From Tubiluchus corallicola (lineage: Eukaryota > Animalia > Priapulida), in NCBI GenBank assembly GCA_030141605.1, contig JAQGDQ010000769.1, positions 34,823-98,822 of the forward strand: a DNA stretch of 64,000 bases. The letters run 5' to 3'. The notes beneath the pieces are model-generated. The model did no database searches, had not been told where the DNA came from, and saw nothing but the letters and a program-made list of their open reading frames with translations. Shown one piece after another: positions 236-61,190 of this stretch; positions within the stretch are counted from its first letter, which is position 1, and each line of letters opens with the position of its first letter. Position numbers and translations under genes: made by a program.

Positions 236-1279
236 CTAACCGTGGTCTTTTACTGTATCCCATCCAAGCTTAATTGGATTTTCTGGTAAATTCGCTAAAG
301 AGACATTCCACACTAACAGAGGTTCAAAATCACATTCACCAACAGCTTCTTTAGCACCTCTTTGGTAATTCATTCCCACTTCTCTTTTGTTACAAGCTAA
401 TGTTTTGTTATCAGGTAAATTAGCGTACAGTGTATACAAGTTGTTTACTGCAAAATAATACATTATATAGGATGAAGGCATCGAACCCATCTTTAAATGA
501 CGTTTTCGTATCCAGGCATTCGTGATTAATCTTTGTCCTGGAATTATCGGAATAAAATTTTCATCTTTCATCACATCAAACACCCAATTGCGAAACTGAT
601 GCCATATTTCTGGAATTGGTGCAAATCCCCAAGTGCCTATCTGATGATATAGAAACACGCCTGCACTATAGCATTCTTCACACAGAGGATTTCTGTGTTT
701 TCCTGTTGTTGAAATCAAAGTTCCTCTCTGCAGTGTTATGCCTCCAATCTCAGATTTTTGATAATATTTTAACAATGCAGCTTTAAGCCATGTATAATAG
801 TGAGGAGAAACTTCCAGATCATCTTCCAAAATCAGCCCGAAGTCTCCCTTTCTTGCAGATGGTTTCCAACAATCATACCATTGCAAGTATGGTCCATAAT
901 GTACAGGGTGGACAATAACTTCCTTTCTACCGAAAACCCATATAAATGAGTTTATGACGTCAAGTGTAGTCGCTGATATTGAACTGTCATTAGCACTTCT
1001 GTCTACACAAATCTTTAGCCCAACTTCATCCTCATTATAGTGACTTGAATTAAGTGACTTTAGAAGCCTCAATAATGACTTTGGCCTTTTGTAAGTCAAT
1101 ACAACGATTTCCAACTTAAATGGATCATTTTCTTTCTTCCCCTTATTAAGCTTAGATGATCTCAAATTCAAAATTCCGCAATGAAACAATGCAAACATAC
1201 AAAAGCACACAAATGTGGCTAATCTTTGCTTCTTATTGCAAACTGATGCTTTTCTGCGCATTATTATTTTGTAAGTCAT
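236..1279 (-). CDS. Uncharacterised GT-A fold (GT2-like) glycosyltransferase, type II membrane protein, single coding exon
   Basis: The ORF is 236..1312 from a TTG; the first in-frame ATG is at 1279. It has a basic N-terminus, a hydrophobic anchor (LATFVCFCMFALFHCGIL), an N-terminal GT-A strand/helix IVVLTYKRPKSLLRLLKSL and a DxD-like motif ILEDDLEVSPHYYTWL. Confidence 0.8.
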   Translation of the reverse strand: MTYKIIMRRKASVCNKKQRLATFVCFCMFALFHCGILNLRSSKLNKGKKENDPFKLEIVVLTYKRPKSLLRLLKSLNSSHYNEDEVGLKICVDRSANDSSISATTLDVINSFIWVFGRKEVIVHPVHYGPYLQWYDCWKPSARKGDFGLILEDDLEVSPHYYTWLKAALLKYYQKSEIGGITLQRGTLISTTGKHRNPLCEECYSAGVFLYHQIGTWGFAPIPEIWHQFRNWVFDVMKDENFIPIIPGQRLITNAWIRKRHLKMGSMPSSYIMYYFAVNNLYTLYANLPDNKTLACNKREVGMNYQRGAKEAVGECDFEPLLVWNVSLANLPENPIKLGWDTVKDHG

Positions 1280-1727
1280 TCTAGATGTTAAAAAAAAACT
1301 TGCTCTTCGCAAGTTCTAAAATTGGGTGTGCTTTTCGGAATATGCTTACTAAATAAATCCTTCGCTTTAAGGTTTCCGCAACTAATGTGCTACTAGACGT
1401 ATCGCACTGGAGTAGAGAAAGAGTATTCTGCATCGAGTAGAGAAATATCGTACTGTGTTAAGTAGTTTTTGTCTTTGTTATTAGTTAAAATCCCTGAAAT
1501 AATCATAATTTTGTAGATAACAAAGTTGCATTGTGAGATCATTGAGTTGATGATTATGATGATGGTACTGATGATGAAGTGACACAGAAGCTCACATTTA
1601 ATATGATTTTTTACGAAGTAAAACTTTAGCAGATATGTGTGCACATTTGACTGTTTTCATGTTGGCCATAATACCTTACGTCACATTTTAAGCTTGAAAG
1701 TTACGTCAGATATTTGACATTGTGAAA

Positions 1728-3750
1728 TGTAAAGTGGTGTCTTTTTCCTTTTTTTCTTGCTTACTCAGTTTGTTTGTCAGTAGAATAAAAGCATTAAAAT
1801 GTTAATTGATCTTTCAGTAAGCTTTGTATTCAGAAACAGGTACACATAAACCACAAGGAAAACTCCGCATTTCAAAAGCATTAGTATCAGTCTCGCAACG
1901 TTACCAAAGTTAAGTGCGCTTCATACTCATATTGCATAAGTTACTAATTACTATCACCCACAAGGAACGCCGTCATTACAAAGATGACGTCACAGCTGCT
2001 CCTGGCCTTCAACCTAAACCCGAAATTCTTGTACAAATGGCCAGTTTCTTATTAGTACATAATACATTTTATGGCTTGCAAGATATATATAATTATTTGA
2101 TTTTGTGAAATGGATTGAGGCGTACATATGTCACAACTTAATTGGTCACTTACAACACACTTCTAATCGCAACACCAAATGAAAGCCCACATATAAGTTC
2201 CTATTCGTCCGTAGCAGTAGCCTTAAATTATTTATCTGTGAACGTTTTCGAGTCATAAGCCTCTAGAGTGCAGGATCACCTCTTGAGCTTTTTGTGATCC
2301 GGGACAGAGAAATTTACAAGATTTTGTAAAAATGTCCAAAACGCAGCCAAGATGGCCTAAAGAATCATGCCTGAAAGTTTGCCAGCTGTATCAAAATTAA
2401 GCCTTAGATTCAGATTTAATAATTATAGTTAACACTTCAACTATACTGTGAAGGCATTTCACAATATAGTTGAAGTGTTAGTAATTAAACATTCCTGCCC
2501 GTCAATCTCCAATATCCAAATTCCAACTTTACAAAGTCCAAAGTCTACTTTAGCCAAAATTTTTTGCTCATTTTTGAATACGTGTTGGAATACCTGATGT
2601 GGATTATGTAAAGACGATAAGTATTACTCATTAAATAAACTGGGGAATATTTAAGCTAACAAAACAAAAAAGATATATTAAAATGTCGGATGCTGGCATA
2701 TTTTTGGCCAAGATCAAATGGGATGAGTCACATTCTACCAACAGTGGGCTACAGTTGTCCAACTAGAATGATGCAATAGATACTATTTTGATAATCACTA
2801 TGGTTATTTAAGCTGTACTACAGTAAGCTGTGTGATGCGGTAATGTGGTGGAACTTGTTTAATCAGGTTTTTGGGTGTGGTTTGACAAGAGTAGTAGGCC
2901 TACACTGTAATAGACAAAAACTTACAGCAAGAAAAGAAACTAGCCTGGCAGAAATAAACTTGGTCAAAGTAATCATGTTTAGGGACTATCCATTGGATAC
3001 TTTTCAGAGTACTACGCCATGATGTGCCATTTTGAATTTTTGTACTACTATGCAGCGGACAACAATTGTCTGAAATGGAATTCTGGATATTATTAATCAT
3101 TTAACTATTACTGTTTGTTAAAATGTATTGCCAATGTGATATACTTGAATAAAATAAAGTCGTGTAAAATAACTGGTTTTCGTGGTAGACTTAACGATAC
3201 AAGCCTTTAACTTTTCAATTAGTCTTGAGGTAGTTGTTAAATTATTGTTACACCGTTTTACCAAGAATGGGTATATATACGCTTGCTCAAGGAATTTCAT
3301 GTGATACAGTATTTATACCTGTTCTCCGACTAAATGAATGAATAACAGTAACATATAAAAATTCACATATTCGTGTATGAAAAAATGAAATACTTGTTTT
3401 ACTATTGTAATAAAGATTGTTTTAACACTGTTTAACGGTGCTGCTGTAACGACCCAGTACAAAAAATTAGTTGACATTCCTGGGTCTGCTGGTTAGTTTG
3501 TTTATATTTCTTTCAATATTGCCTTGGTGAGACTTAACTTACTTTATTATTATTCCTATTTGTAATGCTTTGAATTATGATGTAACATTTAGCTGTTTCT
3601 CTTCTGCTAGTTTAAGCACATTTAAATTAGGTACCTGGGATGGGCCTGACCTTCACATCATTGTTTGAACTTCAGTCACAGCCTAGTTTTACCTATGCGT
3701 GTTTTACCTGTGTGACTATATAGTTGTCGACCTAGTTTTACTGCTGGATG
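1728..3750. repeat. Left arm of a ~2.0 kb near-perfect inverted duplication
   Basis: Reverse complement of 7856..9898. Spurious ORFs are mirrored: 1914..2108(+)/9521..9715(-), 2900..3100(-)/8521..8721(+) and 3118..3300(-)/8321..8503(+), each pair differing by only 1-2 aa. Confidence 0.97.
2430..2480. repeat. ~51 bp near-perfect palindrome (hairpin); second copy at ~9141..9191
   Basis: taacacttcaactatactgtgaa-ggcat-ttcacaatatagttgaagtgtta: 23 bp stem with one mismatch. Confidence 0.85.
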
Positions 3751-3769
3751 AATGATTAGCCATTTGCTG

Positions 3770-5787: not shown

Positions 5788-6915
5788 ATGTCAAGAAAAT
5801 ATGGATTTGTTTGTACATACAGGAAACTGTTTTTTATTTGTTTCATATATCCTTGCTTAAAAAACATTTACATGGCGACTCAGCAAAAAACGATTTCAGT
5901 CAGCTCAGAAAGATTTCCGGTTGTTCCAGAATGTACAGAAAACGACACCAAACTGCGAAGAAAAGTAGATGTAGATAGCGTACTCGTCAATGTGACCAAA
6001 AATGAAAAAGTTGTCAGTATTTTTCCAAAATACTTGAATAAACTTCTCCATTCGCTGAATGACACCACGTTTTACATAACCATGGGCATGTTTCCAGGTC
6101 GGCTGGGCAATCACATGTTTCAATATGCCTCACTGTATGGAATAGCAAAAGCAAATCAGCTAACGCCAATACTGCCTGATCGGTTTCCTTTATACAGGAT
6201 ATATCCCAAACTATCTATTCCAGTAATGTCATCGTGGAATTATATCACCTACAGAAAAGTATTTCGTCGAGTTCGATTTAAGTGTAACTATAAATTTTGC
6301 CCACAATCTAGCAACCTGAGAAAGTACGTTGGAAGCAGCAAAAATATTAGTTTAAAGGGGTATTTCCATTCCTACAAATATTTTAATAAATGGAAAGATG
6401 ATATTAAAGAGCAGTTTAGATTTCGTCAAGAAACAGTTGCAAAAGCCAGAAATATTCTGTATTCTCAATTAGACATGAAGTTTAATTTTCGTAAAGGCAC
6501 TCAGTTTAATATCACGTTGATTGGAGTTCACGTTCGAAGGGGTGACATTAAGAAAACGAATTTGCACGTTCCCACAAAAGAATATTTGACAAGATCTATA
6601 TTATACATGAGAGAAAGGTATGTGAACTCCGTGTTTGTAATTATCGGTGACAATACAGCTTGGAATAAGAGAAACATGGAAGACTTTGACGTTGTTGTCA
6701 TGCCAAACACTTGTGATCCTGTAGTTGACATGTGCATTGTATCTCACTTGTGTGATCACGTGATTACAACGGTGGGAACTTACAGTTTTTGGTGTGGATA
6801 TTTATCAAAGGGAAGTGTACTATATTTTCGAGATACGTTTTTTGATAGTCATAAAGATAAAACTAGCCAAACCACTGCAGACGATTATTTCCCACCAGAA
6901 TGGATTGGCTTATAA
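5788..6915 (+). CDS. GT11 alpha-1,2-fucosyltransferase-like protein (FUT1/FUT2-like), copy A, single coding exon, 375 aa
   Basis: N-terminal anchor KLFFICFIYPCL; GT11 motifs GRLGNHMFQYASLYGIA, GYFHSYKYF, IGVHVRRGD and CDHVITTVGTYSFWCGYL; C-terminal DYFPPEWIGL. Confidence 0.95.
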   Translation: MSRKYGFVCTYRKLFFICFIYPCLKNIYMATQQKTISVSSERFPVVPECTENDTKLRRKVDVDSVLVNVTKNEKVVSIFPKYLNKLLHSLNDTTFYITMGMFPGRLGNHMFQYASLYGIAKANQLTPILPDRFPLYRIYPKLSIPVMSSWNYITYRKVFRRVRFKCNYKFCPQSSNLRKYVGSSKNISLKGYFHSYKYFNKWKDDIKEQFRFRQETVAKARNILYSQLDMKFNFRKGTQFNITLIGVHVRRGDIKKTNLHVPTKEYLTRSILYMRERYVNSVFVIIGDNTAWNKRNMEDFDVVVMPNTCDPVVDMCIVSHLCDHVITTVGTYSFWCGYLSKGSVLYFRDTFFDSHKDKTSQTTADDYFPPEWIGL

Positions 6916-7855: not shown

Positions 7856-9898
7856 CATCCAGCAGTAAAACTAGGTCGACAACTATCTAGTCACACAGGT
7901 AAAGCACGCATAGGTAAAACACGCATAGGTAAAACTAGGCTGTGACTGAAGTTCAAACAATGATGTGAAGGTCAGGCCCATCCCAGGTACCTAATTTAAA
8001 TGTGCTTAAACTAGCAGAAGAGAAACAGCTAAATGTTACATCATAATTCAAAGCATTGCAAATAGGAATAATAATAAAGTAAGTTAAGTCTCACCAAGGC
8101 AATATTGAAAGAAATATAAACAAACTAACCAGCAGACCCAGGAATGTCAACTAATTTTTTGTACTGGGTCGTTACAGCAGCACCGTTAAACAGTGTTAAA
8201 ACAATCTTTATTACAATAGTAAAACAAGTATTTCATTTTTTCATACACGAATATGTGAATTTTTATATGTTACTGTTATTCATTCATTTAGTCGGAGAAC
8301 AGGTATAAATACTGTATCACATGAAATTCCTTGAGCAAGCGTATATAAACCCATTCTTGGTAAAACGGTGTAACAATAATTTAACAACTACCTCAAGACT
8401 AATTGAAAAGTTAAAGGCTTGTATCGTTAAGTCTACCACGAAAACCAGTTATTTTACACGACTTTATTTTATTCAAGTATATCACATTGGCAATACATTT
8501 TAACAAACAGTAATAGTTAAATGATTAATAATATCCAGAATTCCATTTCAGACAATTGTTGTCCGCTGCATAGTAGTAAAAAAATTCAAAATGGCACATC
8601 ATGGCGTAGTACTCTGAAAAGTATCCAATGGATAGTCCCTAAACATGATTACTTTGACCAAGTTTATTTCTGCCAGGCTAGTTTCTTTTCTTGCTGTAAG
8701 TTTTTGTTTATTACAGTGTAGGCCTACTACTCTTGTCAAACCACACCCAAAAACCTGATTAAACAAGTTCCACCACATTTCCGCATCACACAGCTTACTG
8801 TAGTACAGCTTAAATAACCATAGTGATTATCAAAATAGTATCTATTGCATCATTCTAGTTGGACAACTGTAGCCCACTGTTGGTAGAATGTGATTCATCC
8901 CATTTGATCTTGGCCAAAAATATGCCAGCATCCGACATTTTAATATATCTTTTTTGTTTTGTTAGCTTAAATATTCCCCAGTTTATTTAATGAGTAATAC
9001 TTATCGTCTTTACATAATCCACATCAGGTATTCCAACACGTATTCAAAAATGAGCAAAAAATTTTGGCTAAAGTAGACTTTGGACTTTGTAAAGTTGGAC
9101 TTTGGATATTGGAGATTGACGGGCAGGAATGTTTAATTACTAACACTTCAACTATATTGTGAAATGCCTTCACAGTATAGTTGAAGTGTTAACTATAATT
9201 ATTAAATCTGAATCTAAGGCTTAATTTTGATGATTGGATACAGCTGGCGAACTTTCAGGCATGATTCTTTAGGCCATCTTGGCTGCGTTTTGGACATTTT
9301 TACAAAATCTTGTAAATTTCTCTGTCCCGGATCACAAAAAGCTCAAGAGGTGATCCTGCACTCTAGAGGCTTATGACTCGAAAACGTTCACAGATAAATA
9401 ATTTAAGGCTACTGCTACGGACGAATAGGAACTTATATGTGGGCTTTCATTTGGTGTTGCGATTAGAAGTGTGTTGTAAGTGACCAATTAAGTTGTGACA
9501 TATGTACTCCTCAATCCATTTCACAAAATCAAATAATTATATATATCTTGCAAGCCATAAAATGTATTATGTACTAATAAGAAACTGGCCATTTGTACAA
9601 GAATTTCGGATTTAGGTTGAAGGCCAGGAGCAGCTGTGACGTCATCTTTGTAATGACGGCGTTCCTTGTGGGTGATAGTAATTAGTAACTTATGCAATAC
9701 GAGTATGAAGCGCACTTAACCTTGGTAACGTTGCGAGACTGATACTAATGCTTTTGAAATGCGGAGTTTTCCTTGTGGTTTATGTGTACCTGTTTCTGAA
9801 TACAAAGCTTACAGAAAGATCAATTAACATTTTAATGCTTTTATTCTACTAACAGACAATCTGAGTAAGCAAGAAAAAAAGAAAAAAGATACTTTACA
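7856..9898. repeat. Right arm of the ~2.0 kb inverted duplication
   Basis: Begins catccagcagtaaaactaggtcgac (reverse complement of the left arm end at 3750) and ends ...gaaaaaagatactttaca. Small indels relative to the left arm at ~7900-7915 and ~9231-9238. Confidence 0.97.
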
Positions 9899-11120: not shown

Positions 11121-11212
11121 TCACATTTCTGAGCTAATGATTAATACGTGATTTCATTCCATGCCTGCTGACGTTTAATTGTATGGCGGTCTTAGCAGCC
11201 TAGAAATGTATA

Positions 11213-12459: not shown

Positions 12460-15444
12460 ATGCGATTAAGGTTATATAATACGAAGTTTGTGTCAAATAA
12501 AATCTTACTTGCTCCGGTTTGTGGTGTAGTTTGCAGTGTTATTGTTTTAGTTGCTAATTATGCGAATTTGCCAAGTGACAACCCATGCTACATGCAAGGT
12601 AATTATAATAACTTGTTCATTTTCAGTGATTAGTAACATCGAGATGAAATTGATGAAAAGTAGTGAACAGTCGCAGTTCTGTGAAATGGATATTTTAAAT
12701 ATCATTAATTAAGATTCTGCATTTAGTACAATGAATTTAGCAGAATCTCATTGGAAATCAACCGTTTACAATTATTTCTCCACCACCATGGTGAATGAAT
12801 CTAGAGTCATGGAACTTTGTGGCTGAACACCTGAAGGTGAAAAGGCAGTGAAATGGTGACGAGTGACTTTGGGACAAAACACAGTGCAATGTTGGTGTTG
12901 CACGAGCTCAAGGGCATTTCAGCAGTATAGAGTGCGCATACTCGTCTTTGCAGATAAAACCTAGGCTCAATACTTTTAATGTTTAACGCTTCCAGCATCT
13001 GTATATGAAAATACAGAAGAGTATTTAGAAAGGTTAGTCTCACAGCTACCCGAAACTCAAACGCAAACACATCCTCAGTCGAACCAACCAAAGCTACTTG
13101 AACGTCTGGGCAATGATACACCCATTTCCTGGTATCCCTAGTCACAAATGTACAAGTGACAGGACAAAATTACCGTGATATGTCAATACAAAAAGCCTTA
13201 CACATTAAACGTATTTGGCCTAAGTCAAACAGCAAAGATAAGTTTGTGCACTCTTTACCACTGAAGTGCAGTTGACCTTGTACAACACCCACAGTTCACT
13301 GTGTTTTGTGGAATTCAGTAACAAAATGGCAGTTCCCTAATATTGACAGTTCTGTTACTACTTACATATTTGTTTGTCTCTTTGTGGAGAGTAGCATAGT
13401 TTCGTGCCTATCAAGATATGTAATCTGTATCGTAAATTGCTAAATTATCTATATAATGCTGTCTTTTGGCTATCTAACTTCTGAATTGTATCTCGCTGTT
13501 GTTTCTAAATTCTGGTAAATTTCTTTGTTTTAGGTGCCTTGATAATGAACAGTTTGTTTCAAACAGGTCGGCAATGAATTTCATTTTGATATAGTTACAT
13601 CTACTTGCCAAATATGCATAATTCAGCTAACACATTGTTTTACATTTCTTTCTGTCAGATGCCAAATTATGTCACCACAGCTCATTGCTCACACTTAGTG
13701 ATGCCTAGGTGACCGAAATGAATTTTTATCAGAAGTTCCTGCCTCATTAATTAATTATGACTGTGATCGCCAGAACTTCGTAAACCGTTAATTAATTTTA
13801 CCAGTTATTACCCATTACCGGTGGAGAAAATAGATACTGAAAAATTTTGGACTAGTTGGGATTTGAACCCAAGTCTGGAATTAGTATTCCATGCAGTACT
13901 ATATAAGCTACCTACAGTGTACACTTTAGAGCTCACAAGTAGCTAAAAAACCAACGACACCCCCTGTACTATTATGGCATTATAGGGATACTTTAGGTAT
14001 CAATATTTTCCCCGTTAAGCTAGCAACTAATGATAACATTAGTTAATTATGACTGTGACTTCCAGAATTATTTAATTACCGATTAATTACTATCGACAAG
14101 AGGTGTACAGACAAGAACAGCAGATACAGATCTGAGGATTATCACAGTACTTCACAAAACATCTTCAAAATTGAAAAAATCTCAGTGACATTTCGAAATG
14201 GGTCAATTTTCCGTTTCATAGTTGTTCACGAAATTTCTCAAGCATTTCCGTGTTGTGCTAACCTTGTTTCAAGCATTCGTAGGTTGTGATACAATATCTG
14301 CATTTTGTGGAATTGGGAAAAAGTAGGCATGTGACACCTATTGCGCCTATCCCAAGGTTACTGGATCTTTGAGTAGTCTTTGACTGAGAGATTTTTCATT
14401 CTCGTATATGGGAAGGTCAAGAATAAACAGATATGTCAGTTTTTTAGACCTAATTATTCCAAATTATACTTAATAATTTTCTTTTCAGAAGATGTGCAAA
14501 AGAAAGCTTGTAACGATGATTTGAACTCACGCAACTTTATTCGTGGGCCATTTCTAGGCCAAAATTGTTCATTCCGGGCTGAGAAAGTTGCTTATCGAAG
14601 AAAAGTGGTAGCAAAAACAGCATGTGAGAGACAATATTCAACTACAGTTTTTGGTGGAAAATTTAACATGTGGACACAAACATACATTGATGACATTCAT
14701 CGTCTGGCTTATTGTTCAATACCAAAAGCAGCAACCACAAATTGGAAAAGAATTTTAATTAGTTTAATGGCTGCTGATGCAAGTCTTGCTAATGATTCGT
14801 TAGTTCAGCCACGTGATTTAGATGAATTACCAGGATACACACCTCATCAACGTGCCCTGAAAGGTGATCTAATAAAACAAATATCAAGATATTCTGTCTA
14901 CTTGCAGTCATTTGTACTAAAAAAATATAAAAAGTTTATGTTTGTTCGACACCCATTTGAACGTCTTCTAAGTGCTTTCAAAAATAAAATTGAAAGTAAG
15001 AGCTTCTCTTATGAAATTTCACGCATGACTCAAGTTCTCCGAAAACAAAACATAACAATTTCAGATCATATTGTAAGTTTTACAGATTTTGTCAGGTACT
15101 TGGTCGTTACAAATCCAAAACTGTATAACGAACACTGGGCTAGAATGACTGACCTATGTGATCCTTGTACTGTTAAGTATGACTTTATTGGAAAGTACGA
15201 GCATATTGAACAAGAAAGCAAAGATTTTTTGAAAATGTTGAATGTTTATCACAGACTACAGTTAACCAAAAAATATGAATTTCACAACACTAACCACACA
15301 ATCAGGTTAATGAAACATTATTACAGCATGTTGCCTAAAAAACTCTTGAGAAAACTGTATAAGATTTACAAAGCTGATTTTGTCATTTTTGGATATCAGT
15401 TTCCTGCATTTATGCATCGATTTGTAAAACCGGGAATCATTTGA
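12460..15444 (+). CDS. Carbohydrate sulfotransferase (Sulfotransfer_2; CHST8-14/HNK-1ST family), join(12460..12598,14489..15444), 364 aa
   Basis: Exon 1 MRLRLYNTKFVSNKILLAPVCGVVCSVIVLVANY...YMQ-g|gtaatt (phase 1) supplies the membrane anchor, and the acceptor ttttcttttcag|aa at 14488 restores the frame. Contains 5'PSB CSIPKAATTNWKR, 3'PB FMFVRHPFERLLSAF, HW...LCDPC...YDFIGKYE and LYKIYKADFVIFGY. Confidence 0.9.
12800..13580. mobile_element. Penelope-like (GIY-YIG end) retroelement relics in the sulfotransferase intron
   Basis: Minus strand IQMLEALNIKSIEP and plus strand ALHIKRIWPKSNSKD resemble the LEAL.I....P.LN terminus of Penelope GIY-YIG domains. Confidence 0.4.
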
Positions 15445-17584: not shown

Positions 17585-18300
17585 ATGATGTCTACCACAG
17601 GATACGATACACATCTCCCTGATGAACTAATTATTAGTGAGATTTGTAACTTGGACGTCAGCAAAGAAATTAAGCAGATGCTTCAGACTCCTGAAATTTT
17701 ACAAGCATTTTCAACGGTTGTGAGTTCATTGGTTCCTAAAATTACTATGAAGCAGATCGAGGAGGAGTTGGTATAAATGCGTAAAGAGATTAAATACCTT
17801 CGTCAAAAGACCAATAACTTGGAGCACTACAGGAGAAGATGCAGTGTTAGATTTTTTGAGATGCCTGAAAGAGAAGATGAAAACGTTACTGAAATGGTGA
17901 TGAACTTTTGAAACGAAGTTCTTCAATTAGATCATATAAAGACGGAATCTATTGAGAGGAGCCATCGCACTGGGAAAGCAAGAGATGGTAAGCACAGAGC
18001 GATATTAAGCAATTTCATTCGTTATGATTATAAGCGGGGCGTGATTCTTGCAGTTAGAAATCTTATAAAGGAATGCCTTATCTAAAAGTGTACGAGGACT
18101 TAACCAGATCAAACATGGAAGTGGTTCGAAAAGCCCTAAAGTTACGCGACAAAAAGAAAGTCCATAGTGATTGGACGGCCTGACGGAAAAGTAATGATTA
18201 AGAACAATAGCAATAGAATCGTCTCTATAAATAATTTGTCCGAGCTGCGTGAAGCATTTAGAGACGATGCGTTTGAATCATGTATTGTAGAACAAAGCGC
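17585..18300 (+). pseudogene. Frameshifted LINE ORF1 (coiled-coil/RRM-type) remnant
   Basis: Fragments EKEDENVTEMVM, IERSHRTGK, VYEDLTRSN and DGKVMIK, typical of CR1/L1-like ORF1; lies upstream of the ORF2 relic. Confidence 0.6.
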
Positions 18301-19249
18301 CCTCAACTGCTTCAAATAAGCTGCCACGAAGTGACATGAGGTGTATTGGGATGTCCGCCAGTGAGTCATTAAGTCTACCACACCATGGATAGCTGCTGGG
18401 GTTCGTCAACGTCAATCTTGCGGAAACCACCGACTTCTTAGAAGCCTCTACAATCTACTCGTCACTGTTCAGTTGGAGTACCAGTAAAGTACTTTTTCGG
18501 ACTTTGCCTACTTTTAGTGAATTGTCTCTCTTGGGTAAGCCATATAAAAGCAGCATATTATTATTTTTCCTTTCTTACTTAAGTAATAACCTTATGTTGC
18601 GCTTGACATTATTTTGAATTTGATACCGTATAGATACGTGTAATTTGTTGGTGTATGGTTAGTAGTCATAATATTCAGTGTTTAGAATGATTATATTCAG
18701 AATTTGATGACTGCAAAATTTGCTGTAGAAATCGACGCATTAATTTAAAAACATAGACAGTACTTTTGTAGTTTACTGTAATTTACTAATATTACTGGAG
18801 ATTGGCCCGCTTAAAAATTATATCCCTATAGGCATCACTATCAGCTGGTATGTATTAATATAAGCATGCAAGATTATAGTGATATAAAACTACCTGCAAA
18901 CCTCTGTATATAGATTTAAAGTTAACCTTGGAAGTATTGTACTAGTTGTCTGGTATACAATAATTCTGACCTTGCACGCGTTAAACGATGTGTGAAATCT
19001 TTAACTTCGGTAATTTGTTGTGTCTGTGTAACACACACACATATATATATATACATTTGTAGAAATGTAATCTGTTTACACGATGTATATATAAATATAT
19101 AGATATTTAGTTATATATATTGTAACTCAATTAACCCAATTAGGCATTCAAGCATGTAAAGCAATCCCTGTATCACCATATGGACATGGCTAGGAACAGG
19201 AACCTCAGTCACAACCAGTAGAAAAATCTGATGTTCGTAATAATTTTGA

Positions 19250-21990
19250 TACTGTTTCATTTTATTATTGTAATTCTCATAGTCTTGTTAATAAGAAATC
19301 TCAGTTTTACTAATTGTTAACTGGTGAGGTGGATATTGCATTAATAACTAAAACTTGGTTTACAGATACTGTTACTAATGGAATGTTTAATGACTATGGG
19401 AATTATAATGTTTTCTAAAAAGACAGGGGCTCAAGGTGTGCTGGCACTGCAGCTTTTATGAAAAAAGGTTTACATGCAAACTTAGTTTCTTGTTAAGACT
19501 GCTATAAGCACCTTGAAACTCTAACTATTGACATTACTGGTGAATTTCGTATGATTATTAATTTATCGTCCACCCAGTATGAGCATAGAAACGTCAAAAC
19601 TGCCGTGGAATTATTTATCAGAAATGTGTGACATTGTTAAACCTGTCATTATTACAGGGGAATTTAACTTCCCTTTCATAACTTGGTTAGAAAATCTTTC
19701 ATCACCAGACACTGCGCAATGCAATTTATTTATTCACACTGTAACTAATTTACGGCTTTAACAATTTGTTACTGAACCAACTCGTGCTGATTCAACGACT
19801 GGAACTTGTTCTTTCTTAGATTTATTGTTCTGCACAGATGAGGCATTTGTTTTTGATGTTAATGTTGCAGAACCTGTGATTACGGCTGACTATTCAGCAG
19901 TTGTTTTTTGAATACCAAAGCTTATTGTACACTAATGTGATTACATTGTTACGATACTTTCGATTCCTGTGTTTCTACACAAAGTTTGTGGGACAGGTTC
20001 TACAACATAATCCATGAAGCCATTGACAACAACGTCCTCTGCATGGCCTAGCATGCATAAAGGTAAAAAGAAACATAATACTAATTACCCTCCTAATCTG
20101 AAACTCATAATCGGTAAGAAGCGCTAGCTTTATTCAAAACGTAATAATTCTGCTGAAAATAAGAGAGCGACTCTGTATAGAAAATTTAAAAAAGGAAACT
20201 TAAAAAAATTTAAAATAGGCGAGTTACTATTCGTGAACACAGAGTTTTAGCTAGTATTAATCGTAATAAATTATTTAAGTGCGTTCATAAAACAAGATGT
20301 AATGATAAAGGTGTAGCGCCTTTAAAAGATAAGCAAGGTAACATTGTTGTCGCTGATCTAGAAAGAGCTAAAATGACTATTTTAGTAAATTTTTCACTAT
20401 TGATGATGGCAAGAAACCGTCGATTTCACAAAAAAACACCTTCTGCAATTTAATTACATTAATTGAATTTTTGTTGTACGATATGTTGTACAATTTAATT
20501 AGTATCCTTGAGCGGTTGTGTCCGTAAAGCCATTCAAAAAAGTAAATCTAAAAAAAGTCGTACGCCTGGCTGTTTAAGCAGGCCATTGTTTTCAAGCAGT
20601 TGATTGATGTAATCTGTTTATCTTTATCCATGCTTTTTAATGTCTCTTTTAGTCAAGACAGCCTCCCATATGAATGGAAAATAGCAGAGGTATTACTCAT
20701 GTACAAAAGAGGGGAAAGTTCAGACCCGAGCAACTGTAGACCTATTTCTGTTACTTCGATATAAAATCATTGAAATTTGTATTTGTGCTGAGATGCTAGC
20801 ACTTCTTATTAGGCATAATGTAGTAAGTAAGCACCAGCCTGGGTTTTTATCAAAACATTCATCATGCATACATTTATTAGGATCAATTTATAATTGGACT
20901 GTTGCTTTAGATAAAAAAATCTGTTTATATTGTATATATTGATTTCAAAAAAGGTTTTAATTCAGTCAGCCAACATAAATTACTAATTAAGTTGGAACTT
21001 GTGGCATATGTGGCCTACTGTTTGATTGGATTACACGTTTCTTAACAGGGCGTTTACAAAAAGTTGTTAGGGCAAAAGTTCTTCTATTTATGTACAAGTA
21101 ACTTTAGGATTAGCTCAGAACAGCGTTCTGGGCCCCCTACTGTTTATATTGTTTGTAAATGATCTGCCTGATGTCATTGGTAGTTCTTATTGTAAACAAT
21201 ATGCAGCTGATGTGAAATTATATCACCGTGCTGACACTGGAAGTAATAATATTCGGAATGTAAAAATGTATTTCCTAGTAGTCTAAATAACTGCCAAATT
21301 CAGTAAATAAATGCTCTGTTCTACATATAGGATGCAAAAACACTATCCATAACTATAAAATGGAAAGTACTAATCTTACACTAAAGGACAAAGTGTTAGA
21401 TCTCGAACTCACAGTTAGCAAAAATCGAAAATTTTCAACTCATTGTCTTGATATCTGTGCTATGGCAGATCGTGTAAGCTTTTCAATGCTTTGTTGCGCT
21501 GATAAGCTGCATGCTTACAGTCTACAAAACAATAATCCTGGAGTCCCTACCTTCTGAAGGATATAGATCTTGTGGAAAATGTATAATATTCACGTGCAGA
21601 CTTTTTGCTAGATGTAAGTTAAACTCCACGTCATGCCCAAGTAAATTATAAATACTCAAAATGGAACGCCTAGAATTAAAACGCATTTATAATGATCTAA
21701 ATATGTGCAATAGCATAATTCATGATGATATATCAATCTCGAGTAAATATTTTTTAACTTTGCACCACTTGCAAATACTACAAGAATTGCTTTTAACATT
21801 TCTTCGGCAACAGAGTTGTAAGTTTATGAAATAAACTACCACCTTATGTGAACGGTGCTCCAACTGTAAATGTTGGCAACGGAAAAGTATTTAGAAAACG
21901 GCTATGTCACTTTGATTTTAGCAAAATTTTACTTTTTTATATCTTTAGACGCATTAACCAACATTAAAATGAAAATGAACAACCAACATA
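19250..21990 (+). mobile_element. Degenerate CR1-type LINE ORF2 (AP endonuclease + reverse transcriptase)
   Basis: Recognisable broken motifs: IITGEFNFPFITW, QFVTEPTR...LDLLF, EWKIAEV...KRGESSDPSNCRPISVTS, Q.SVLGPLLFILFVNDLPD, YAADVKLY and LERLELKRI..DL-like. Many stops and frameshifts. Confidence 0.88.
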
Positions 21991-22647: not shown

Positions 22648-23682
22648 ATGAAGCTATCTAAACATTACATGAATGTGTTGACACGGCGTGCTTTACAATT
22701 CTTAGGACACGGTTGCTGGTTCTCTTGTTGCTGGTTTCTTATCTGGATGTCTTGGCATGAAAACAACAAATTTAGAGATCAAGTGAACATTAGCAATAAC
22801 AGATTACACTACACTAACCAAACTGAACGAAAGAGTTTGAAAGCAATACATGTGTTTGTATTAGGAAAGATTTCTCAACGAGTTGGATTAGGAAATAAAA
22901 TGTTTAACTATGCTTCAATGTATGGTATTGCCCGTACAAATAACATGAAACAAAGTGTTATGCAAGATGATGAAATAGTGTCTGTGTTTCCCAAACTCAA
23001 CGCTACGCACCTCAGTGATACAGACTTTAAAGAGGGTAATTTTCTTAAGGTGACAGCTAGAAGCTGCTGCTCGTATGATCCCATCATGAAACAATTACCG
23101 CAGCATCGTAATACATCCATTGGAGAGCGAATGCTCATCTCTTATCGTTATTTCCATCATGTTAAAGAAGAAATTCGCGCTCAATTTCAATTCCCAGTCC
23201 AAACAATTTTGCGTGCTCGAACTTTGGTAGCAAATCTGTGCACAGTCAAAGAAATTCCTAATTGTCACGAAATGACAACAGTGGGAGTGCACGTTCGAAG
23301 GGGAGACTTCAATTCTCCCAGGTCAAGTAAATATGGACGGCGTACATCAAGTGTTGATTATATTAAGCGCGCAATGAGCTTTTTCAAAAGCAGGTATCAT
23401 GATGTTGTATTCATAGTGGCTGGTGACGACCCAAGGTGGTGTGTGGAGAACCTTAATTTCCCAGATACAGTCGTTGTTGAAAGCAATGAACCAAAGATTG
23501 ACTTGTGCATTTTATCTCATTGTGATCACGTGATAATGACTGTTGGAACATTTGGTTGGTGGGCTGGTTATCTTTGCAAAGGAACCGTTGTTTATGACAG
23601 GGATTCAGCAGAACCCGGATCTCGTTTTGACTCTTTACTGCGCGTTGACGATCGCTACCCTGAAGAATGGATTACTATGTAG
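22648..23682 (+). CDS. GT11 alpha-1,2-fucosyltransferase-like protein, copy B, single coding exon, 344 aa
   Basis: Anchor FLGHGCWFSCCWFLIWMSW; motifs GLGNKMFNYASMYGIA, VGVHVRRGDF, FIVAGDD and CDHVIMTVGTFGWWAGYL; C-terminal YPEEWITM. Confidence 0.95.
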   Translation: MKLSKHYMNVLTRRALQFLGHGCWFSCCWFLIWMSWHENNKFRDQVNISNNRLHYTNQTERKSLKAIHVFVLGKISQRVGLGNKMFNYASMYGIARTNNMKQSVMQDDEIVSVFPKLNATHLSDTDFKEGNFLKVTARSCCSYDPIMKQLPQHRNTSIGERMLISYRYFHHVKEEIRAQFQFPVQTILRARTLVANLCTVKEIPNCHEMTTVGVHVRRGDFNSPRSSKYGRRTSSVDYIKRAMSFFKSRYHDVVFIVAGDDPRWCVENLNFPDTVVVESNEPKIDLCILSHCDHVIMTVGTFGWWAGYLCKGTVVYDRDSAEPGSRFDSLLRVDDRYPEEWITM

Positions 23683-25182: not shown

Positions 25183-27392
25183 TTGGCCGCAAAAACCGAT
25201 GAATGGTTTGGCCACCTTTGTCTTCAGAAAATTTTCCTATTCAATCATTTACCTGAAGATGACGATTTTAATCATGTTATAAGAAATTCGCTACTTGATT
25301 CTATAATTTGTAAGGATCCTTATTATTTAGATCTTTTCCAAACAACACTATTGTGTTGTATATATATGTTATATATTGATTCTATACATTTTTCAATCAA
25401 AAAGATTCTTTTCCAAAAAGTAAATACTACGACAATGAGCAATTTTTGTCTATGCTTTCAAACATAAATTTCAACAACATATTATCAATGATCCATCTGA
25501 ATATAAGAAGTATATCTGCTAATTATGACCACTTAACTGTACTGCTGCAAATGTTACAAACTCAATTCTCACTGATTGCGTTAACCGAAACGTGGTTAAA
25601 TATACAGAAAAAAATGTTTAAGTTACCCGGATATATTCTGTTGAATAGAAATAGGAAGAATAAAAGGGGGGTGTAGGGTTGTTCATTAAATCAGACATAC
25701 CACTTGTAATGAGAAACGACTTAACATCAAGCAACTCTGCCCTTGAAATATTTTTTTTCGAAATTCACAAAGTAAGAGGCAAAAACATAGTAGTCGGCTT
25801 GATCTACAGACATTTATTGAACAGTTGACTGCTAAACTATCAATAATAAATAATAAAATAAGCAGTTGTTTTTGTTGTTGAAACTACAATTTGAACTTAT
25901 TAAATCACTCTTCAAATCAAGACACGGCAGAGTTTCTTGAAACTATTATTACTATGTCTTTCCAGTTGTTACTTGTCCTACTCGAATTACAGCATACAGC
26001 TCTACATTAATTGTTAATATTCTGACAAATGTTATACAGCATCAGTATAGAGCTGGCATTCTTTTAGTAGATGTCACCGATCACATACCAATCTTCTTAA
26101 TCATTGACTTAAACATAGCAAAATCTCAAACTAATAATATCGACAAAGTAATATACAATAACCATGTAAAAAATAAATTAATAAGTTGTATAGAATCAGT
26201 CAACTGGGAGGAATTATATAGTATTTCAGATCCTGAAGCAGCTTACAATCTATCTCTGGATAAATTTAACGAAGCCTACTTTAAAAATATAAAAAACTAC
26301 TGATGCTTCCAAGAAAACTAATGTCATTAAAAATGCATGGATAACTACAGCCATATTAACCAGTATCAGTCACAAAAATAAAATGTATAATTCATTAAAC
26401 AAACAAATCTCAGAGGCAGCTGGGACCGATACAAACAATATTGCAATAAATTAGATAATGTTGTTAAAAATGCTAAATCGACTAATTATCAAAATCAGTT
26501 GTTAAACCAATTTAAAAAAAACATGGGGAATTATGAAAGAAATAATGCATTCCAGGTGCGAACAGCCCTTAATTCGTTTAAAAATTAATAATAAATTAAT
26601 CGCAGTTCCTAAATCTACAGTAAATCATTTTAATGACCATTTTTCGCAGAATTAAAACGATTAATTGTTATCCCTATCTTCAAATACAAGGATTCTCTAG
26701 ACATAAATAATTATAGACCTATCTCGCTGTTACTGTTTTTCTCAAAAATATTGGAAAAAGTTGTTAACAATAAAATATTATCATACTTCTACCATCAAAA
26801 CATAATAAACAATAAGCAGTTTGGTTTTCAGAAAAACAATTCAACTGAATTGGCTTTGATAAACATAGTAGAGAGTATAACTAAATACATTGAACAAATT
26901 GAATTTATGAATTAGAAACTGTTCAGCCAATTCAAAAATTTAAGAAGAAATACAGAGCAATGATTCTCAACAAGTACAACACTTCCTAATTTTGTACACC
27001 TACTGCAGCAGTCTTACCACAATCCTGTGGTACATGATACAAAACAAGACATCATTGATAAATCTTTAGAGTTGATGTCAACATAGCACAATCTTGTTAT
27101 CTTTCTTCCTACCATTTCCACTAACACATCGTTCTGCCCTTCCTGTGTGACCTAACCTTTCCCCCAGATCTTTTTTTGTTCACTCATCCATTCTTTTTTT
27201 TTATCGTGTTCACATGACAGAGGGCTTATACAAGCCTTTGCTTCTCTAGCCCACTGCAGTACAATTATTCTTTTAAGATAACGATAGTGTATGAAACATA
27301 ACAATTTAATACAGTATGATGTTCTAATTTTGATGTCACTGTGTACTTTATATTGTACTGAATGTGATAATAATAAAATAAACTAAACTAAA
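25183..27392 (+). mobile_element. Internally deleted CR1/L2-type LINE (endonuclease, start of RT, 3' end)
   Basis: IHLNIRSI, IALTETWL, RNRKNKRG, PTRIT..SSTLI, DVTDHIPIF, NNYRPISLL.FFSKILEK and KQFGFQKNNSTELAL; 3' tail aataaaataaactaaactaaa. Confidence 0.85.
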
Positions 27393-27453: not shown

Positions 27454-27455
<2 letters not shown>

Positions 27456-32283: not shown

Positions 32284-33705
32284 ATGGTAAGTTTCCTAAA
32301 AAAGCTGAAAAGCTGTGGTGCTTTTATTTTATGCATACCATATTTACTGGCATATTACAGGATATTTAATACAGATGTCTCGATAAAAGAAAATGTTCAC
32401 AGCATGGACTGCAATGAAGGATTAATGCATGACGCTAAATGGCTGCTGGTTACTGGAACTGACAGCGCAACGTATTCAGCTTTTTATGATGACCGTTTGG
32501 AGGTGCCTGTCATTCGTATTACAGGTTTGACTCTAAAAGAACGTAAAAAACACATAAAATTCTTCTGTCATTTCTTCTACGAGAATAGCTCTTACATCAG
32601 TGAAGCTTTTGTCTACGTAATACCAGATGACAAACGAGGAAGACTTTACAGTGCTGCACTGTTTAATTGTCCCCTGAAAACTGATTCAGTGCCTTTAGCT
32701 GTAAGTTTGAGTATCTCAAAAGAGTTTCCTTCAGATAATTGGATGAAAGTCAATGTTGGCAACTCTGTAGGCAAAACACAGAGAAATATTGGGATTTGCT
32801 TGCCAATAATCCACGACCATGGAACAATTGACTCTCCCAATGCATTGCAGTTGATTGAATTCTTTGAAATGAACAGGATCTTGGGTGTTGATCGGATCGT
32901 TCTTTATATCGGTGTAATTATTGATGTTAATGTTAAACGAGTTATCGATTGGTATGTTAAAAGTGGTTTTGTTATTGCTTTTGATTTTGCTTTATATTCT
33001 GATATCATTGATAAAGGTCTCAAGACGCCTGATGGCGGCATGTGGGATGTTCACTATGGTGCACAATTTACAAGTATCAATGACTGTTTATATAGATACA
33101 TGTATAAATTTAAGTACACTGCGTTTCAAGACATTGATGAATTTATTATACCTAAATTACATTCGACTTTATTAGAAATGGTGCATTATATCTTACAAGA
33201 GTCAATCAATGAAGGTGATGTTTTGCTCGACAATGTGGCAGCGTTGGTATTTAGAAATAACTATGCTTTCTACGTCATTCAGGATATGTTTAATAGAAGT
33301 GAGAATACATACGAACAGTGCCAAAATATTTGTCATCGATTATTGCTGGGCAATACTAATTTTACCATTAAAGGTCATTACTGGAAATGGCAAAAAAGGT
33401 CTAAACTGATTGTCATACCAGAAAAGATTGCGTCGTTGAGTATTCATGTTGTTGACTGTACGATTAAAGAAGAGTTTATAGAGTATGATGTGCCAATTGG
33501 TATTGGATTATTGTATCATCTGAAAAATTCTGCAAAGTTTCTTAGGTATAGAAACTTTATCTCAAAGCCCTACTCAGCAAAGTATCAAGAAACAATTGAG
33601 ACATACGTACTTAAACCAACTCATCCAAAATACAGTGCGAAATGGATGTCAGAACTGAAAAGGGCAACGCAGATGACTTTTAATAATATTTACTGTGAGG
33701 CATAA
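32284..33705 (+). CDS. GT92 (DUF23) glycosyltransferase, galactan/beta-1,4-galactosyltransferase-like, single coding exon
   Basis: ATG at 32284 (the ORF track starts at a TTG at 32260). Anchor GAFILCIPYLLAYY; YSAFYDDR, LIEFFEMNRILGVDRIVLY, Q..SINDCLYRYMYKFKYTAFQDIDEFIIP (DxD), RSKLIVIPEKI..LSIH and LLYH. Confidence 0.93.
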   Translation: MVSFLKKLKSCGAFILCIPYLLAYYRIFNTDVSIKENVHSMDCNEGLMHDAKWLLVTGTDSATYSAFYDDRLEVPVIRITGLTLKERKKHIKFFCHFFYENSSYISEAFVYVIPDDKRGRLYSAALFNCPLKTDSVPLAVSLSISKEFPSDNWMKVNVGNSVGKTQRNIGICLPIIHDHGTIDSPNALQLIEFFEMNRILGVDRIVLYIGVIIDVNVKRVIDWYVKSGFVIAFDFALYSDIIDKGLKTPDGGMWDVHYGAQFTSINDCLYRYMYKFKYTAFQDIDEFIIPKLHSTLLEMVHYILQESINEGDVLLDNVAALVFRNNYAFYVIQDMFNRSENTYEQCQNICHRLLLGNTNFTIKGHYWKWQKRSKLIVIPEKIASLSIHVVDCTIKEEFIEYDVPIGIGLLYHLKNSAKFLRYRNFISKPYSAKYQETIETYVLKPTHPKYSAKWMSELKRATQMTFNNIYCEA

Positions 33706-43822: not shown

Positions 43823-45545
<1,723 letters not shown>

Positions 45546-45641
45546 GCGTGAATCCTGAGCTTACAGTATGGAAAAGTGAAAATGTTTTCTAAAAGCAAGT
45601 TTATGTACATCAAGTTAGTTAAACACAGTAATCCGGATAAA

Positions 45642-54475
<8,834 letters not shown>

Positions 54476-56765: not shown

Positions 56766-57989
56766 AATGGTGAAATGACAATAATAATCCATTGTTCTGC
56801 TGTACAAGTACTTCAACGCAGCGGACTTATTACACAGCTAGCTGAAGGTTGGACGAGGAAGACGAATGTCAAATCTACTAGCCGCTGCAGTGGCGCCTAC
56901 TACTGCATCCGTGGATGAAGCAGAAATATTATATCAACGATGTAAATTAGTAGAGCAAATAAACAGAAAAATTGTGCATTTTTGAGAAAATTATGTAATT
57001 TCTAGCACAGGTACATAGCGTTTCGTCTTAGGTGTGGAGGGAAAACAGATTTGTCCTTTGAGAGCTGCTAGAGATCAAATTCAAAATGGCTGCCATCGAC
57101 AAAGGCAAACTTTCTCAATTGTCATATTTTGCCAACTTCTGATGCAGCACTACGAGTAAAGTATCTATATTTGCCAAAATTTAATATGGAATAATTTAAA
57201 GTAAATATAGGAGCAAAATTTCAAATCACATTTGAATATTTGAGTTTGCATTTGACAGAAATCCAAGATGGCGTCTATAAGTAGGATTATCAAGCACCCA
57301 GCGTTTCGAGTGTATCGTTTTGTGAGACACTGTAATTGATATAATTTTCAGCTAAAATAAGTTTTCCATCCTTTTCAAAATAGTTTTGAAATTTACAATA
57401 ACATGTTATTATAAGGATTTAGATAAATTAACATTAGAGTTTATCTTTCACAGTAACATGACTGTTTGGGCTTTACGGTGACAAACAAAGTCATCATTTT
57501 GCTCAGAATAACTGTTTATTGTTTGTGTACCATTTTCACGTCACATGCACCTTTACTTCATCATATCTGACACTGTGACGCCATTACCCAAAATATTACA
57601 TTTTATCTGAAACAAGATATATAAATTCCTTTAATAAACTAATTCGTTTCTATCAAAAGATCGATTACGATTACGTGAAATTAATGAGAGACTTACAGTA
57701 AATAAAATAAATAACTAAATAAAATTTACATACATCGTTGGCATTAAATCGTGAGTTCACAGAAACACGTCATCACTTGAACACATTGAAACTTAAATAA
57801 ACGGAAATTGACTAGGATGCAAAAATTGAGGCCAGATGTTGCCACTTGTAACTGTAAAACGCTATATTAAATTTAACAAACAAAAATCCTTGACACCGTC
57901 TACTTAAAGGTATGTTAGACATTTACTATTTACTACAAAGAGTTTAACAGAGCAAACATCTTTATGAACTGTCAATCTAATTTTTACAG

Positions 57990-58740
57990 TGCTTCTCAAC
58001 CAAGTACTTTCAAGTGTGCTTTCAACCAAGCATAATCTGTGAATGGGGCGCTGCAGCTGCCCATCCTTTGTTTTTAGTGTTACGCTTCTCACTAGGCCGT
58101 CTCTTCCAACATGTTTTTCCGTTATTCGAGCAAGAAGCCAACAACTTCTGGGGGTTTCATCCATTATCAGTACAACGTCGCCTATTTCGACATCCTTCTT
58201 CTAGCGATTCGATTTTGAGCGGATCTGGAGAAGCGGCAAGTACTCTGTCTGCCAACGTCGCCAAAAGACATCAGCAGAGACAGGCACAGATGCCAAGACC
58301 TCACGTCTGTTGCTCATCCACTTAGTTATGTGGAATCCACCAAGAGACAATAAGGCAGTCAGTTGAGAAACTAGCTGTATGGCTTCATTCACGGTGTTTA
58401 GCGATTTTAAAAGGTCGTCCACATAGAAGTTTCGTAAAACGGTAACGACGGGTAATTTGCGGGAAACAGATCTGCATTGTCTTTTGCAGTCCTTTGCAAA
58501 GCAAATGATGCAACCCTCGGGGACCACACCCCGCCAAACAAGTGTACACACATTCTAAAAGTACGTGGTTGACTGTTAAGATTACCATCTTTCCACCAAA
58601 GGAAACGCAACATATCTCTGTGTTTTGGAGACACGATCACCTGGTGGAGCATCTCCCGGATATCCACCATTACTGCAATAGGATTCTCTCTAAACCGAAG
58701 CAAAACTCCAATGCACGTGTTTGTAAGATCTGGCATGTTG
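57990..58740 (-). mobile_element. Bel-Pao LTR retrotransposon remnant (RT fused by deletion to the post-integrase C-terminus)
   Basis: GVLLRFRENPIAVMVDIREMLHQV, FYVDDLL, GGFHITKWMSN, then directly FWRRWQTEYLPLLQ and PRSCW.LARI....GRDGLVRSVTLKT....QRPIHRLC. Confidence 0.92.
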
Positions 58741-59199
58741 TTTTAACGAAGTATTTTACGATGTAAAACTTTTTCACAAATTATCTTGTAAATGTGGACA
58801 GATTACGCTAAACGTTTTCCACACTGGAAGCGTAATAATGATGGGGGATTTCTCCCACGCATTTGATAAATATAATGATTTCGCATACGAGAAGATGATG
58901 TTCGCTTGCCTGCTTAATGATTGCCATATGTAGCTGAAGAATAAACTGTTTTGTATCGCATAAACGAATATATAATTGTATAATGAAATTTGTAGAATTT
59001 TTAATAATTATTTTGTATTACATAAGTGAATGGAGAAATGTATAATCAAACGTGTAGAATTTTAATAATCAAAGAAACATGTAATCAGTTGTAGAAACAA
59101 TCACTTGTAGAAATCATTTGTACATAAACGATAAATATTTATGAAAATTTGATTTTTGATGCTTGGAGAAGTATTTCAATCACTTTCACCTTAAATGCG

Positions 59200-59608: not shown

Positions 59609-60089
59609 TTAATACATGTAAAGTAATACGTGTCGCTGTGGCCTGAGTGGTGCCTGATTGGTTGATGTCTATATTATCACTTAGCTAGATCATTACAGAG
59701 AAATAGACCAAGTGTTTATTACATTTTACAAAGGATGTAGCTTTGTCACATAAATGCACAGAGCTTGAGTCATTTTACAGGTGATTATAGAAATCATAAC
59801 TGTTTGTTAAATACAATATTTATGATTACTGACAGCAAAATGTTAGTAGGGTAGCTCTGCTACAAATACCTTAAACATTCTCTAGAACAAACAGTGCAGA
59901 TACTTGTCCCCTACGAGATCTGACTTTTCAACTGCTATATAAATATCAATGACTATAAAATTACTCTAATGAAATAACACACCTTGAAGTAAATCCTTAA
60001 CAGTTGGCAAATAAAAAAATCAAAGGACTTGATAGCATGAATGATGGAAAAATTTAAATTTTTTTAGCAACACAAAGTTTTTACTTTGT

Positions 60090-61190
60090 TTAATTTAGTC
60101 CTATCCATTTAGGTGGCCAATAATCACTAGCAATGAACAAGTGTGTTTTGTCTCTGTACCTATCAGGAAGCATATCACGAAAATATACTACAGTTCCATT
60201 TGATAAATATCCACACCAGAAACTGAATGTTCCTACTGTTATGATCACGTGATTGCATAGTTGACTTACTATGCACATGTCAACAGCAGGCTCACTGTTG
60301 TTAGGCATGAAAACGACAACTGATCCATTAATGTTTTCTTTGTTCCAGGTTGTATCCTTGCCAAGAACAACAAACACTACGTTTGTAAATTTGCTTTTCA
60401 TAAATTCCATGGACCTTTTGATATATTCAGCTGAAGGGACTTTAAAAATTGTTGACAAGATATCGCCTCTTCGCACGTGAATTCCCACTAATGTTACTGT
60501 AGCAGCAAAAATACCTCTCTGCTGTAATTCATAATTTAACAACATTCTCGCTTTTGTGATGGTTTTACTGTTAAAACTAAATTGACTTTTAATTTCGTCT
60601 TTCAAGTCTTTAAAATATTTATATGAGTGGAGATACCCTTTCAAACTTATGTTTGTTGGGTGTCCAATGTAATCTATTAAATGTTGCGAATGAGGATAAA
60701 ACTTTGTGCCATATCTTAATCTAACACGCCGAAACTGTTTTCTAAAGTACAAATATTTAACTGAAGACATTGTTGGTATCTTTAGATGTGAAAAGACATT
60801 GTACAAGGAAAAATCTTCTGGCAATACTGGTGTAAAGCGATTTGCACGTGCTATTCCGTACAAGGAAGCATAGCTAAACATGTTATTTCCAAGTCTTCCT
60901 GGCAGCATTCCCATAGTTATGTAAGACACTCTGTTTTTCAGTGAGTGTAGAGTAACTCTTGCATTCTGACGTCTTGAGTACAAACGGTTTTCTTGCTCTT
61001 CAGTTTTCATAATGAAATGATATTTAGTACCGAGGCTTCTAGGCCTAGGTCTTTCTATGTCTACCATGCGTAACTTTTGTTTCACGACAACCCAAACGTA
61101 AACAAAACCACAAAAAGTCATCAGTAAGAAAAATGTGAACACAGCCTGTTGTCTATTGGTATGTTTTCTTATGGTGTCATGATGTTCCAT
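60090..61190 (-). CDS. GT11 alpha-1,2-fucosyltransferase-like protein, copy C, single coding exon, 366 aa
   Basis: Anchor AVFTFFLLMTFCGFVYVWVVV; GRLGNNMFSYASLYGIA, GYLHSYKYF, VGIHVRRGD, CNHVIITVGTFSFWCGYL and DYWPPKWIGL. Confidence 0.95.
   Translation of the reverse strand: MEHHDTIRKHTNRQQAVFTFFLLMTFCGFVYVWVVVKQKLRMVDIERPRPRSLGTKYHFIMKTEEQENRLYSRRQNARVTLHSLKNRVSYITMGMLPGRLGNNMFSYASLYGIARANRFTPVLPEDFSLYNVFSHLKIPTMSSVKYLYFRKQFRRVRLRYGTKFYPHSQHLIDYIGHPTNISLKGYLHSYKYFKDLKDEIKSQFSFNSKTITKARMLLNYELQQRGIFAATVTLVGIHVRRGDILSTIFKVPSAEYIKRSMEFMKSKFTNVVFVVLGKDTTWNKENINGSVVVFMPNNSEPAVDMCIVSQLCNHVIITVGTFSFWCGYLSNGTVVYFRDMLPDRYRDKTHLFIASDYWPPKWIGLN

Follow-up and report, generated by a model that had tools for sequence, protein, structure and literature searches.

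Eight linked Golgi-type genes of six glycan-modifying families in a priapulid genome: a candidate biosynthetic gene cluster

A stretch of 64,000 nucleotides from the priapulid Tubiluchus corallicola (assembly GCA_030141605.1, contig JAQGDQ010000769.1, positions 34,823 to 98,822 of the forward strand; here termed the window, with positions counted from its first letter) carries eight genes for glycan-modifying enzymes. Six families are represented within 61 kb: GT11 (three genes), GT92, GT31, a CHST-type sulfotransferase, a Gal3ST-type sulfotransferase and an enzyme of the glycosyltransferase (GT) fold termed GT-A. An earlier note, made from the letters of this DNA, had placed eight such enzymes of six families at 236..61190, and this is borne out, as all eight gene models (8/8) are full-length with a single terminal stop, and the families are supported by profiles and a fold comparison. 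Adjacency of at least three non-homologous enzyme genes is one mark of a eukaryotic biosynthetic gene cluster, and by this mark the locus is a candidate. The eight-gene set is real and intact, and apparently non-random. On a tentative reading of the sequence, the linked genes may well form one toolkit that caps secreted or surface glycans within a single type of secretory cell.

The window has 28 stop-to-stop open reading frames (ORFs) of at least 100 amino acids, and eight of these represent the glycan-modifying enzymes, as judged by a Pfam scan and by homologues. Coding DNA amounts to 9,042 bp, or 14% of the window, with about one gene per 8 kb. The strands of the eight genes are mixed, the G+C content is 30-39% across the whole window, and GT-AG introns are present in three gene models (GT31, Gal3ST and CHST). 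An N-terminal hydrophobic segment is clear in five of the eight proteins (mean hydropathy 1.8-2.5) and weak in the GT92 protein and two GT11 proteins, GT11a and GT11b, where values of 1.2-1.5 are not clearly above those of internal segments. With Pfam hidden Markov models, scores are above cut-off for the three GT11 proteins and for Sulfotransfer_2, Glyco_transf_92 and Gal-3-O-sulfotransferase, and below it for Galactosyl_T and Glycos_transf_2. The top named matches vary by gene: priapulid for GT-A, octocoral for GT31, echinoderm or hemichordate for Gal3ST, and mollusc or tardigrade for GT11. The family distribution is patchy. At identities of 30-45%, neither the sugar nor the linkage made by an enzyme can be deduced from its sequence.

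The GT11 genes belong to the alpha-1,2-fucosyltransferase family and consist of GT11a (5788..6915, + strand, 375 amino acids), GT11b (22648..23682, + strand, 344 amino acids) and GT11c (60090..61190, - strand, 366 amino acids). Pfam PF01531 scores 78-113 bits in the three (cut-off 23.9), and all three keep the HVRRGD motif. GT11a and GT11c are 55% identical and lie in opposite orientations. In a tree with 27 homologues, from which two weak homologues were omitted, the trio forms a single clade (support 95/89), with GT11b on a long branch; there are therefore six independent lineages to explain. No solved structure was found among the GT11 relatives.

The GT31 gene has two exons on the + strand, at 45582..46215 (with a DDD motif and a start possibly at 45582, 45603 or 45642) and at 54012..54475 (154 codons, found with an octocoral homologue at an expectation value, E, of 1e-8). 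The two-exon model encodes 365 amino acids, is 34% identical to the relative P0063 over 310 aligned columns, and includes a GT-AG intron of 7,796 bp in phase 1. Galactosyl_T scores 21.3 bits on exon 1 alone, against a cut-off of 23; the domain (PF01762) is present in 16 of 16 GT31 homologues, and the profile is closest to B3GALT6 (E 1.8e-15). The Galactosyl_T domain, the DDD motif and the full length together place the protein in the family. In octocoral relatives the genomic ORFs are broken where the intron lies, at a common position and phase, and thus the intron is shared with the octocoral genes. Three further relatives (L001-L003) align unbroken across the site, and represent intronless or spliced forms.

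Within the GT31 intron, in antisense orientation, lies the entire Gal3ST-type gene, with coding exon 1 at 48200..48282 (predicted membrane anchor) and exon 2 at 46675..47710, both on the - strand. The exon join is backed by P0082, a contiguous protein of 373 amino acids with 75% identity on both sides of it, and PF06990 (Gal-3-O-sulfotransferase) scores 200 bits, above cut-off. This nested transferase-sulfotransferase pair is a new feature, absent from the earlier note. GT31 exon 1 and Gal3ST are flanked by a 1.7-kb direct duplication (90.5%). One copy (43875..45545), mostly high-copy repeat, is directly upstream of GT31 exon 1, and the other (48966..50658) is within the intron. When extended (48966-50735 vs 43875-46584), the second copy runs on into a match to 46506-46584 without the 960 bp that hold GT31 exon 1. 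It may be a duplicated GT31 5' unit that is now without its exon, or else the scar of an insertion around Gal3ST.

The CHST-type gene has coding exon 1 at 12460..12598 (+ strand, predicted membrane anchor) and exon 2 at 14489..15444 (+ strand, Sulfotransfer_2 domain). Its intron is 1,890 bp, GT-AG and in phase 1, with the exon join placed by splice signals and frame; Sulfotransfer_2 (PF03567) scores 161 bits, above cut-off. GT92 (32284..33705, + strand, 473 amino acids) is of the galt-1-like beta-1,4-galactosyltransferase family, with Glyco_transf_92 (PF01697) at 102 bits, above cut-off, and a place in the galt-1-like cluster (0.98).

The GT-A gene (236..1279, - strand) encodes 347 amino acids in one coding exon, with an EDD motif, and belongs to an uncharacterised family with a GT13-like fold. 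Of the former label 'GT-A/GT2-like', the GT-A part holds and the GT2 part is withdrawn, as Glycos_transf_2 (PF00535) scores 15.4 bits, under the cut-off of 23.3, and the closest fold is that of GT13. There are 2,149 relatives at E 0.001, the best being from Priapulus caudatus (42% and 38%), well above all others; the family is large and has no Pfam model of its own. A structure model (predicted local distance difference test score 92 when alignment-based, 30 from the single sequence) matches POMGNT1 (Z 19.5, root-mean-square deviation 2.8, 211 residues aligned), GnT-I (Z 19.1, deviation 2.7, 208 aligned) and MGAT2 (Z 17.6), with the following structure at only 14.3. The first two matches are at 13% identity, and the GT13 profile gives E 0.023. 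The model points to transfer of N-acetylglucosamine (GlcNAc) rather than to a GT2 function, although a common fold alone shows no activity. Fusion to a Nucleotid_trans domain is found in 29 of 34 long homologues, and some carry methyltransferase domains.

A 2.0-kb inverted duplication (97.8%; 1728..3750 and 7856..9898) flanks GT11a. Upstream of the GT-A start, the duplication sets in after 449 bp, and the second copy faces CHST in the same way. The GT-A and CHST genes each have an acceptor-like site immediately before the ATG, and it is possible that one duplicated promoter or 5' exon serves both.

Are the genes functional? One sample, which may be the source of the window itself, has DNA runs whose contigs include a second version of the GT92, GT31 and Gal3ST coding parts, about 2% different, and an additional Gal3ST relative that is 88% identical. 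The codon comparison used the best-supported 40 rows per comparison, with 37 sites in 34 codons. Among the differences listed for the three genes, 19 codons are synonymous and 15 non-synonymous, a synonymous excess with a binomial p of 4e-6 to 1.5e-3 at an expected share of 0.2-0.3 (about 20% of sites are synonymous); ratios of non-synonymous to synonymous change (pN/pS), among the same differences, are approximately 0.35, 0.18 and 0.11 for the three genes. These three genes thus look functional and are under purifying selection. Selection that is purifying and not diversifying weighs against a fast-evolving recognition marker. The notion of clustered Golgi enzymes of different families is strengthened, in that six independent lineages are found together and intact, with the three compared genes under purifying selection and one gene nested in another.

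The DNA around GT92 is represented by long zero-difference contigs at a depth of 81-90, and depths of the coding parts sum to about 300-400. At 32284-33705 and 45582-48924 the coding depth exceeds that of the single-version flanks by a factor of about 3-4. There are hints here that each of the three families is present in three or four almost identical copies, by block duplication or ploidy, with the proviso that a summed depth is no copy number. In another sample under the same label, pieces of GT92, GT31 and Gal3ST occur at 85-90%, without linkage. A possible RNA run has only repeat pieces among those listed for two stretches, which has no bearing on expression.

What lies between the enzyme genes? 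A Pfam scan of the other ORFs of at least 48 amino acids covered 336 of 348 stop-to-stop frames (12 microsatellite frames were left out). Two passed the cut-off, with RVT_1 and DUF5641, both of transposon type. The former marks decayed long interspersed nuclear element (LINE) fragments at 25941..26912 (+ strand) and the latter decayed long terminal repeat retrotransposon fragments at 57907..58742 (- strand), which we take to be BEL/Pao. A decayed LINE-like element at about 17600..21900 (+ strand, bounds set by eye) has an endonuclease fragment under the Pfam cut-off, and the 16-22 kb gap reads as decayed LINE or transposon debris. A 175-amino-acid ORF at 63469-63996 has a weak baculovirus FP-domain match and is probably a remnant of the ORF1 type from a transposon. 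In the 336 of 348 ORFs, a scan that missed the real GT31 exon 2 recognised no other host gene. The description of the enzyme genes as separated only by repeat debris therefore holds for other host genes in these ORFs and is too strong for small or divergent exons, which may escape such a scan.

No more transferase or sulfotransferase fragments were found by tblastn with 258 homologues of the GT11, GT31, Gal3ST and GT-A families; for CHST and GT92 fragments the queries were the window's own proteins. A codon model for hidden exons has no power, as two of eight held-out genes scored negative. Several kilobases of low-copy unannotated DNA remain, e.g. at 30.4-32.1 and 34.9-37.7 kb, and many hidden genes in the window are unlikely. 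One segment, 36015-36575, has low depth in the own-sample run and is covered in the diverged sample; no gene was recognised in it. High-copy DNA is prominent: between 27.6 and 44.4 kb, summed depth exceeds 1,000 in 17 of 30 bins, vs about 85 for single-version contigs. Fast turnover of the region by local duplication, inversion and insertion is suggested.

How might such a toolkit operate? An order of steps can be proposed from family chemistry and the nearest characterised relatives. The GT13-like enzyme, going by its fold, would add GlcNAc before galactose, fucose and sulfate are attached. GT31 would then add beta-1,3-galactose and GT92 beta-1,4-galactose, and the three GT11 enzymes and two sulfotransferases would end the chain with alpha-1,2-fucose or sulfate. 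The product would be several H-like and sulfated epitopes and not one polymer, by terminal capping of type 1/type 2-like chains. Here we infer the specificities, the shared substrate and the shared cell type. The locus was probably put together bit by bit within DNA rich in repeats, through local duplications, inversions and insertions, to judge from a GT11 clade present in both orientations, two local duplications and one nested gene. A bolder and rather doubtful proposal is that of a 'glycotype locus': a single type of secretory cell would express all six families together, the set would be passed on or duplicated en bloc, and each haplotype would determine a surface or mucus epitope that bears sulfate and fucose.

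Several observations weigh against a common toolkit. Fucosylation and 3-O-sulfation of the same terminal galactose tend to compete, and the GT31 and GT92 families each include several specificities; the GT31 profile here also matches B3GNT2. The genes lie on both strands, and nucleotide-sugar, 3'-phosphoadenosine-5'-phosphosulfate (PAPS) or transporter/export genes were not found within the window. Fusion of the GT-A domain to GT11, GT92, GT31 or a sulfotransferase occurs in none of the 34 long homologues, and thus fusions give the enzyme set no support. Shared upstream 7-9-mers are no commoner than in random non-coding windows (p 0.68-1.0), in a comparison of low power with start sites unmapped. 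A chance model, with an assumed genome share for these families, expects 2e-5 six-family runs per 30,000 genes at a share of 3% and 5e-4 at 5%, figures that favour the toolkit; the 0.03 expected at 10% and 0.3 at 15% count against it. By this model a chance origin would require the families to make up about 10-20% of genes. In the marine invertebrate Alvinella pompejana, carbohydrate sulfotransferases, a beta-1,3-galactosyltransferase family and GT92 are reported as jointly over-represented (PMC12403961), and therefore the background can be high. In Pristionchus, linked sulfatase and NAGLU genes are expressed in different neurons (PMC8869759). Sites of TGACGTCA were considered as promoter evidence and rejected: they are enriched (7 vs 0.62 expected), but the duplicated segment accounts for two, repeat copies for at least three and a coding region for one. 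A metagenome scan for linkage gave five loci of 1.0-4.3 kb, with a second family in 0/5; these are too short for a test.

Could the genes be neighbours without a shared product? Compact, lineage-expanded glycogenes might gather in repeat-rich, fast-turning DNA through duplication and transposon-aided moves, each serving a separate glycan, with an adjacency that is non-random all the same. This is quite possible, if not favoured. The high-copy bins at 27.6-44.4 kb, the recent inverted and direct duplications, the second versions of GT92, GT31 and Gal3ST with the 88% Gal3ST relative, and the lack of a shared upstream motif are all in keeping with it. In accumulation zones of this kind, however, lectins, receptors and pseudogenes are usually present as well, and these were not found in the ORF and homologue scans of the window; it is also left unexplained why Golgi enzymes alone gather. 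Co-expansion of the same families elsewhere (PMC12403961) agrees with accumulation.

It is unlikely, in turn, that the cluster is an artefact of visibility, with extremely abundant families that are easy to see, since the catalytic domain is in one long exon, and short-exon genes interleaved and unseen. The missed GT31 exon 2, the powerless codon model and the low-copy unannotated DNA leave room for this, and the chance model expects 0.09-0.5 such runs if the families form 15-20% of 8,000 compact genes. Yet the families would have to be very common in the genome, the 16-22 kb gap reads as transposon debris, and hidden genes cannot account for the nested pair. Uptake of a whole bacterial capsule locus or giant-virus glycosylation cassette is brought to mind by viral and cyanobacterial look-alike clusters of the GT-A family, but this is already largely refuted and highly improbable: the best named matches are all animal, three genes have GT-AG introns, the GT31 intron position and phase are common with octocoral relatives, and GT31 relatives were not found in viral or prokaryotic genome contigs. 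Even if the genes accumulated without a joint role, a gathering of Golgi enzymes alone calls for explanation.

Glycan pathways of animals are normally scattered over the genome, and it is therefore difficult to match the Golgi enzymes of invertebrates with products. A shared capping toolkit, if true, would be a gene cluster of pathway type, of which animals have few, with a pathway readable from gene order and a ready test set for the uncharacterised GT13-like family; a glycotype locus, if true, would be to animals what a serotype locus is to microbes. Full-text literature searches, with most subscription papers outside coverage, gave no report of an animal cluster that mixes families of Golgi transferases and sulfotransferases.

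Bacterial capsule and O-antigen loci resemble the window in having several linked, intact transferase families of complementary chemistry. The likeness to a capsule locus drawn before does not extend to organization: the window has mixed strands, introns, animal Golgi-type anchors, one gene per 8 kb and 14% coding DNA, and no operon and no precursor-supply, transport or export genes. In vertebrates, the FUT1/FUT2/Sec1 tandem brings three GT11 paralogues close together, and with the H-antigen and 3'-sulfo-galactose pathways it parallels the GT11 trio and the proposed type 1/type 2 chain capping. The vertebrate partner galactosyl- and sulfotransferases are unlinked, however, and between the window proteins and named relatives identity is no more than about 30-40%. 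Alvinella has the sulfotransferase, GT31 and GT92 families over-represented, the same kinds as in the window; what is reported there is over-representation and not physical mixing at one locus (PMC12403961). The eud-1/sul-2.2.1/nag-1/nag-2 locus of Pristionchus (PMC8869759) is likewise of mixed family, with an inverted duplication and enzymes of sulfated carbohydrates; it has two hydrolase families vs the six transferase families here. Biosynthetic clusters in animals are called very rare in PMC11869996, and those known make nonribosomal peptide synthetase (NRPS) and terpene products (PMC11869996, PMC12685057). The mollusc bur-ox NRPS cluster (PMC11869996) and the octocoral briarane terpene clusters (cited in PMC12685057) are similar to the window in that non-homologous enzyme genes adjoin in an animal genome. 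They have a scaffold-forming enzyme, an order conserved across species, biochemical support and small-molecule products, whereas the window has Golgi-type tailoring enzymes only. If the toolkit is real, glycans would join small molecules as products of biosynthetic clusters in animals.

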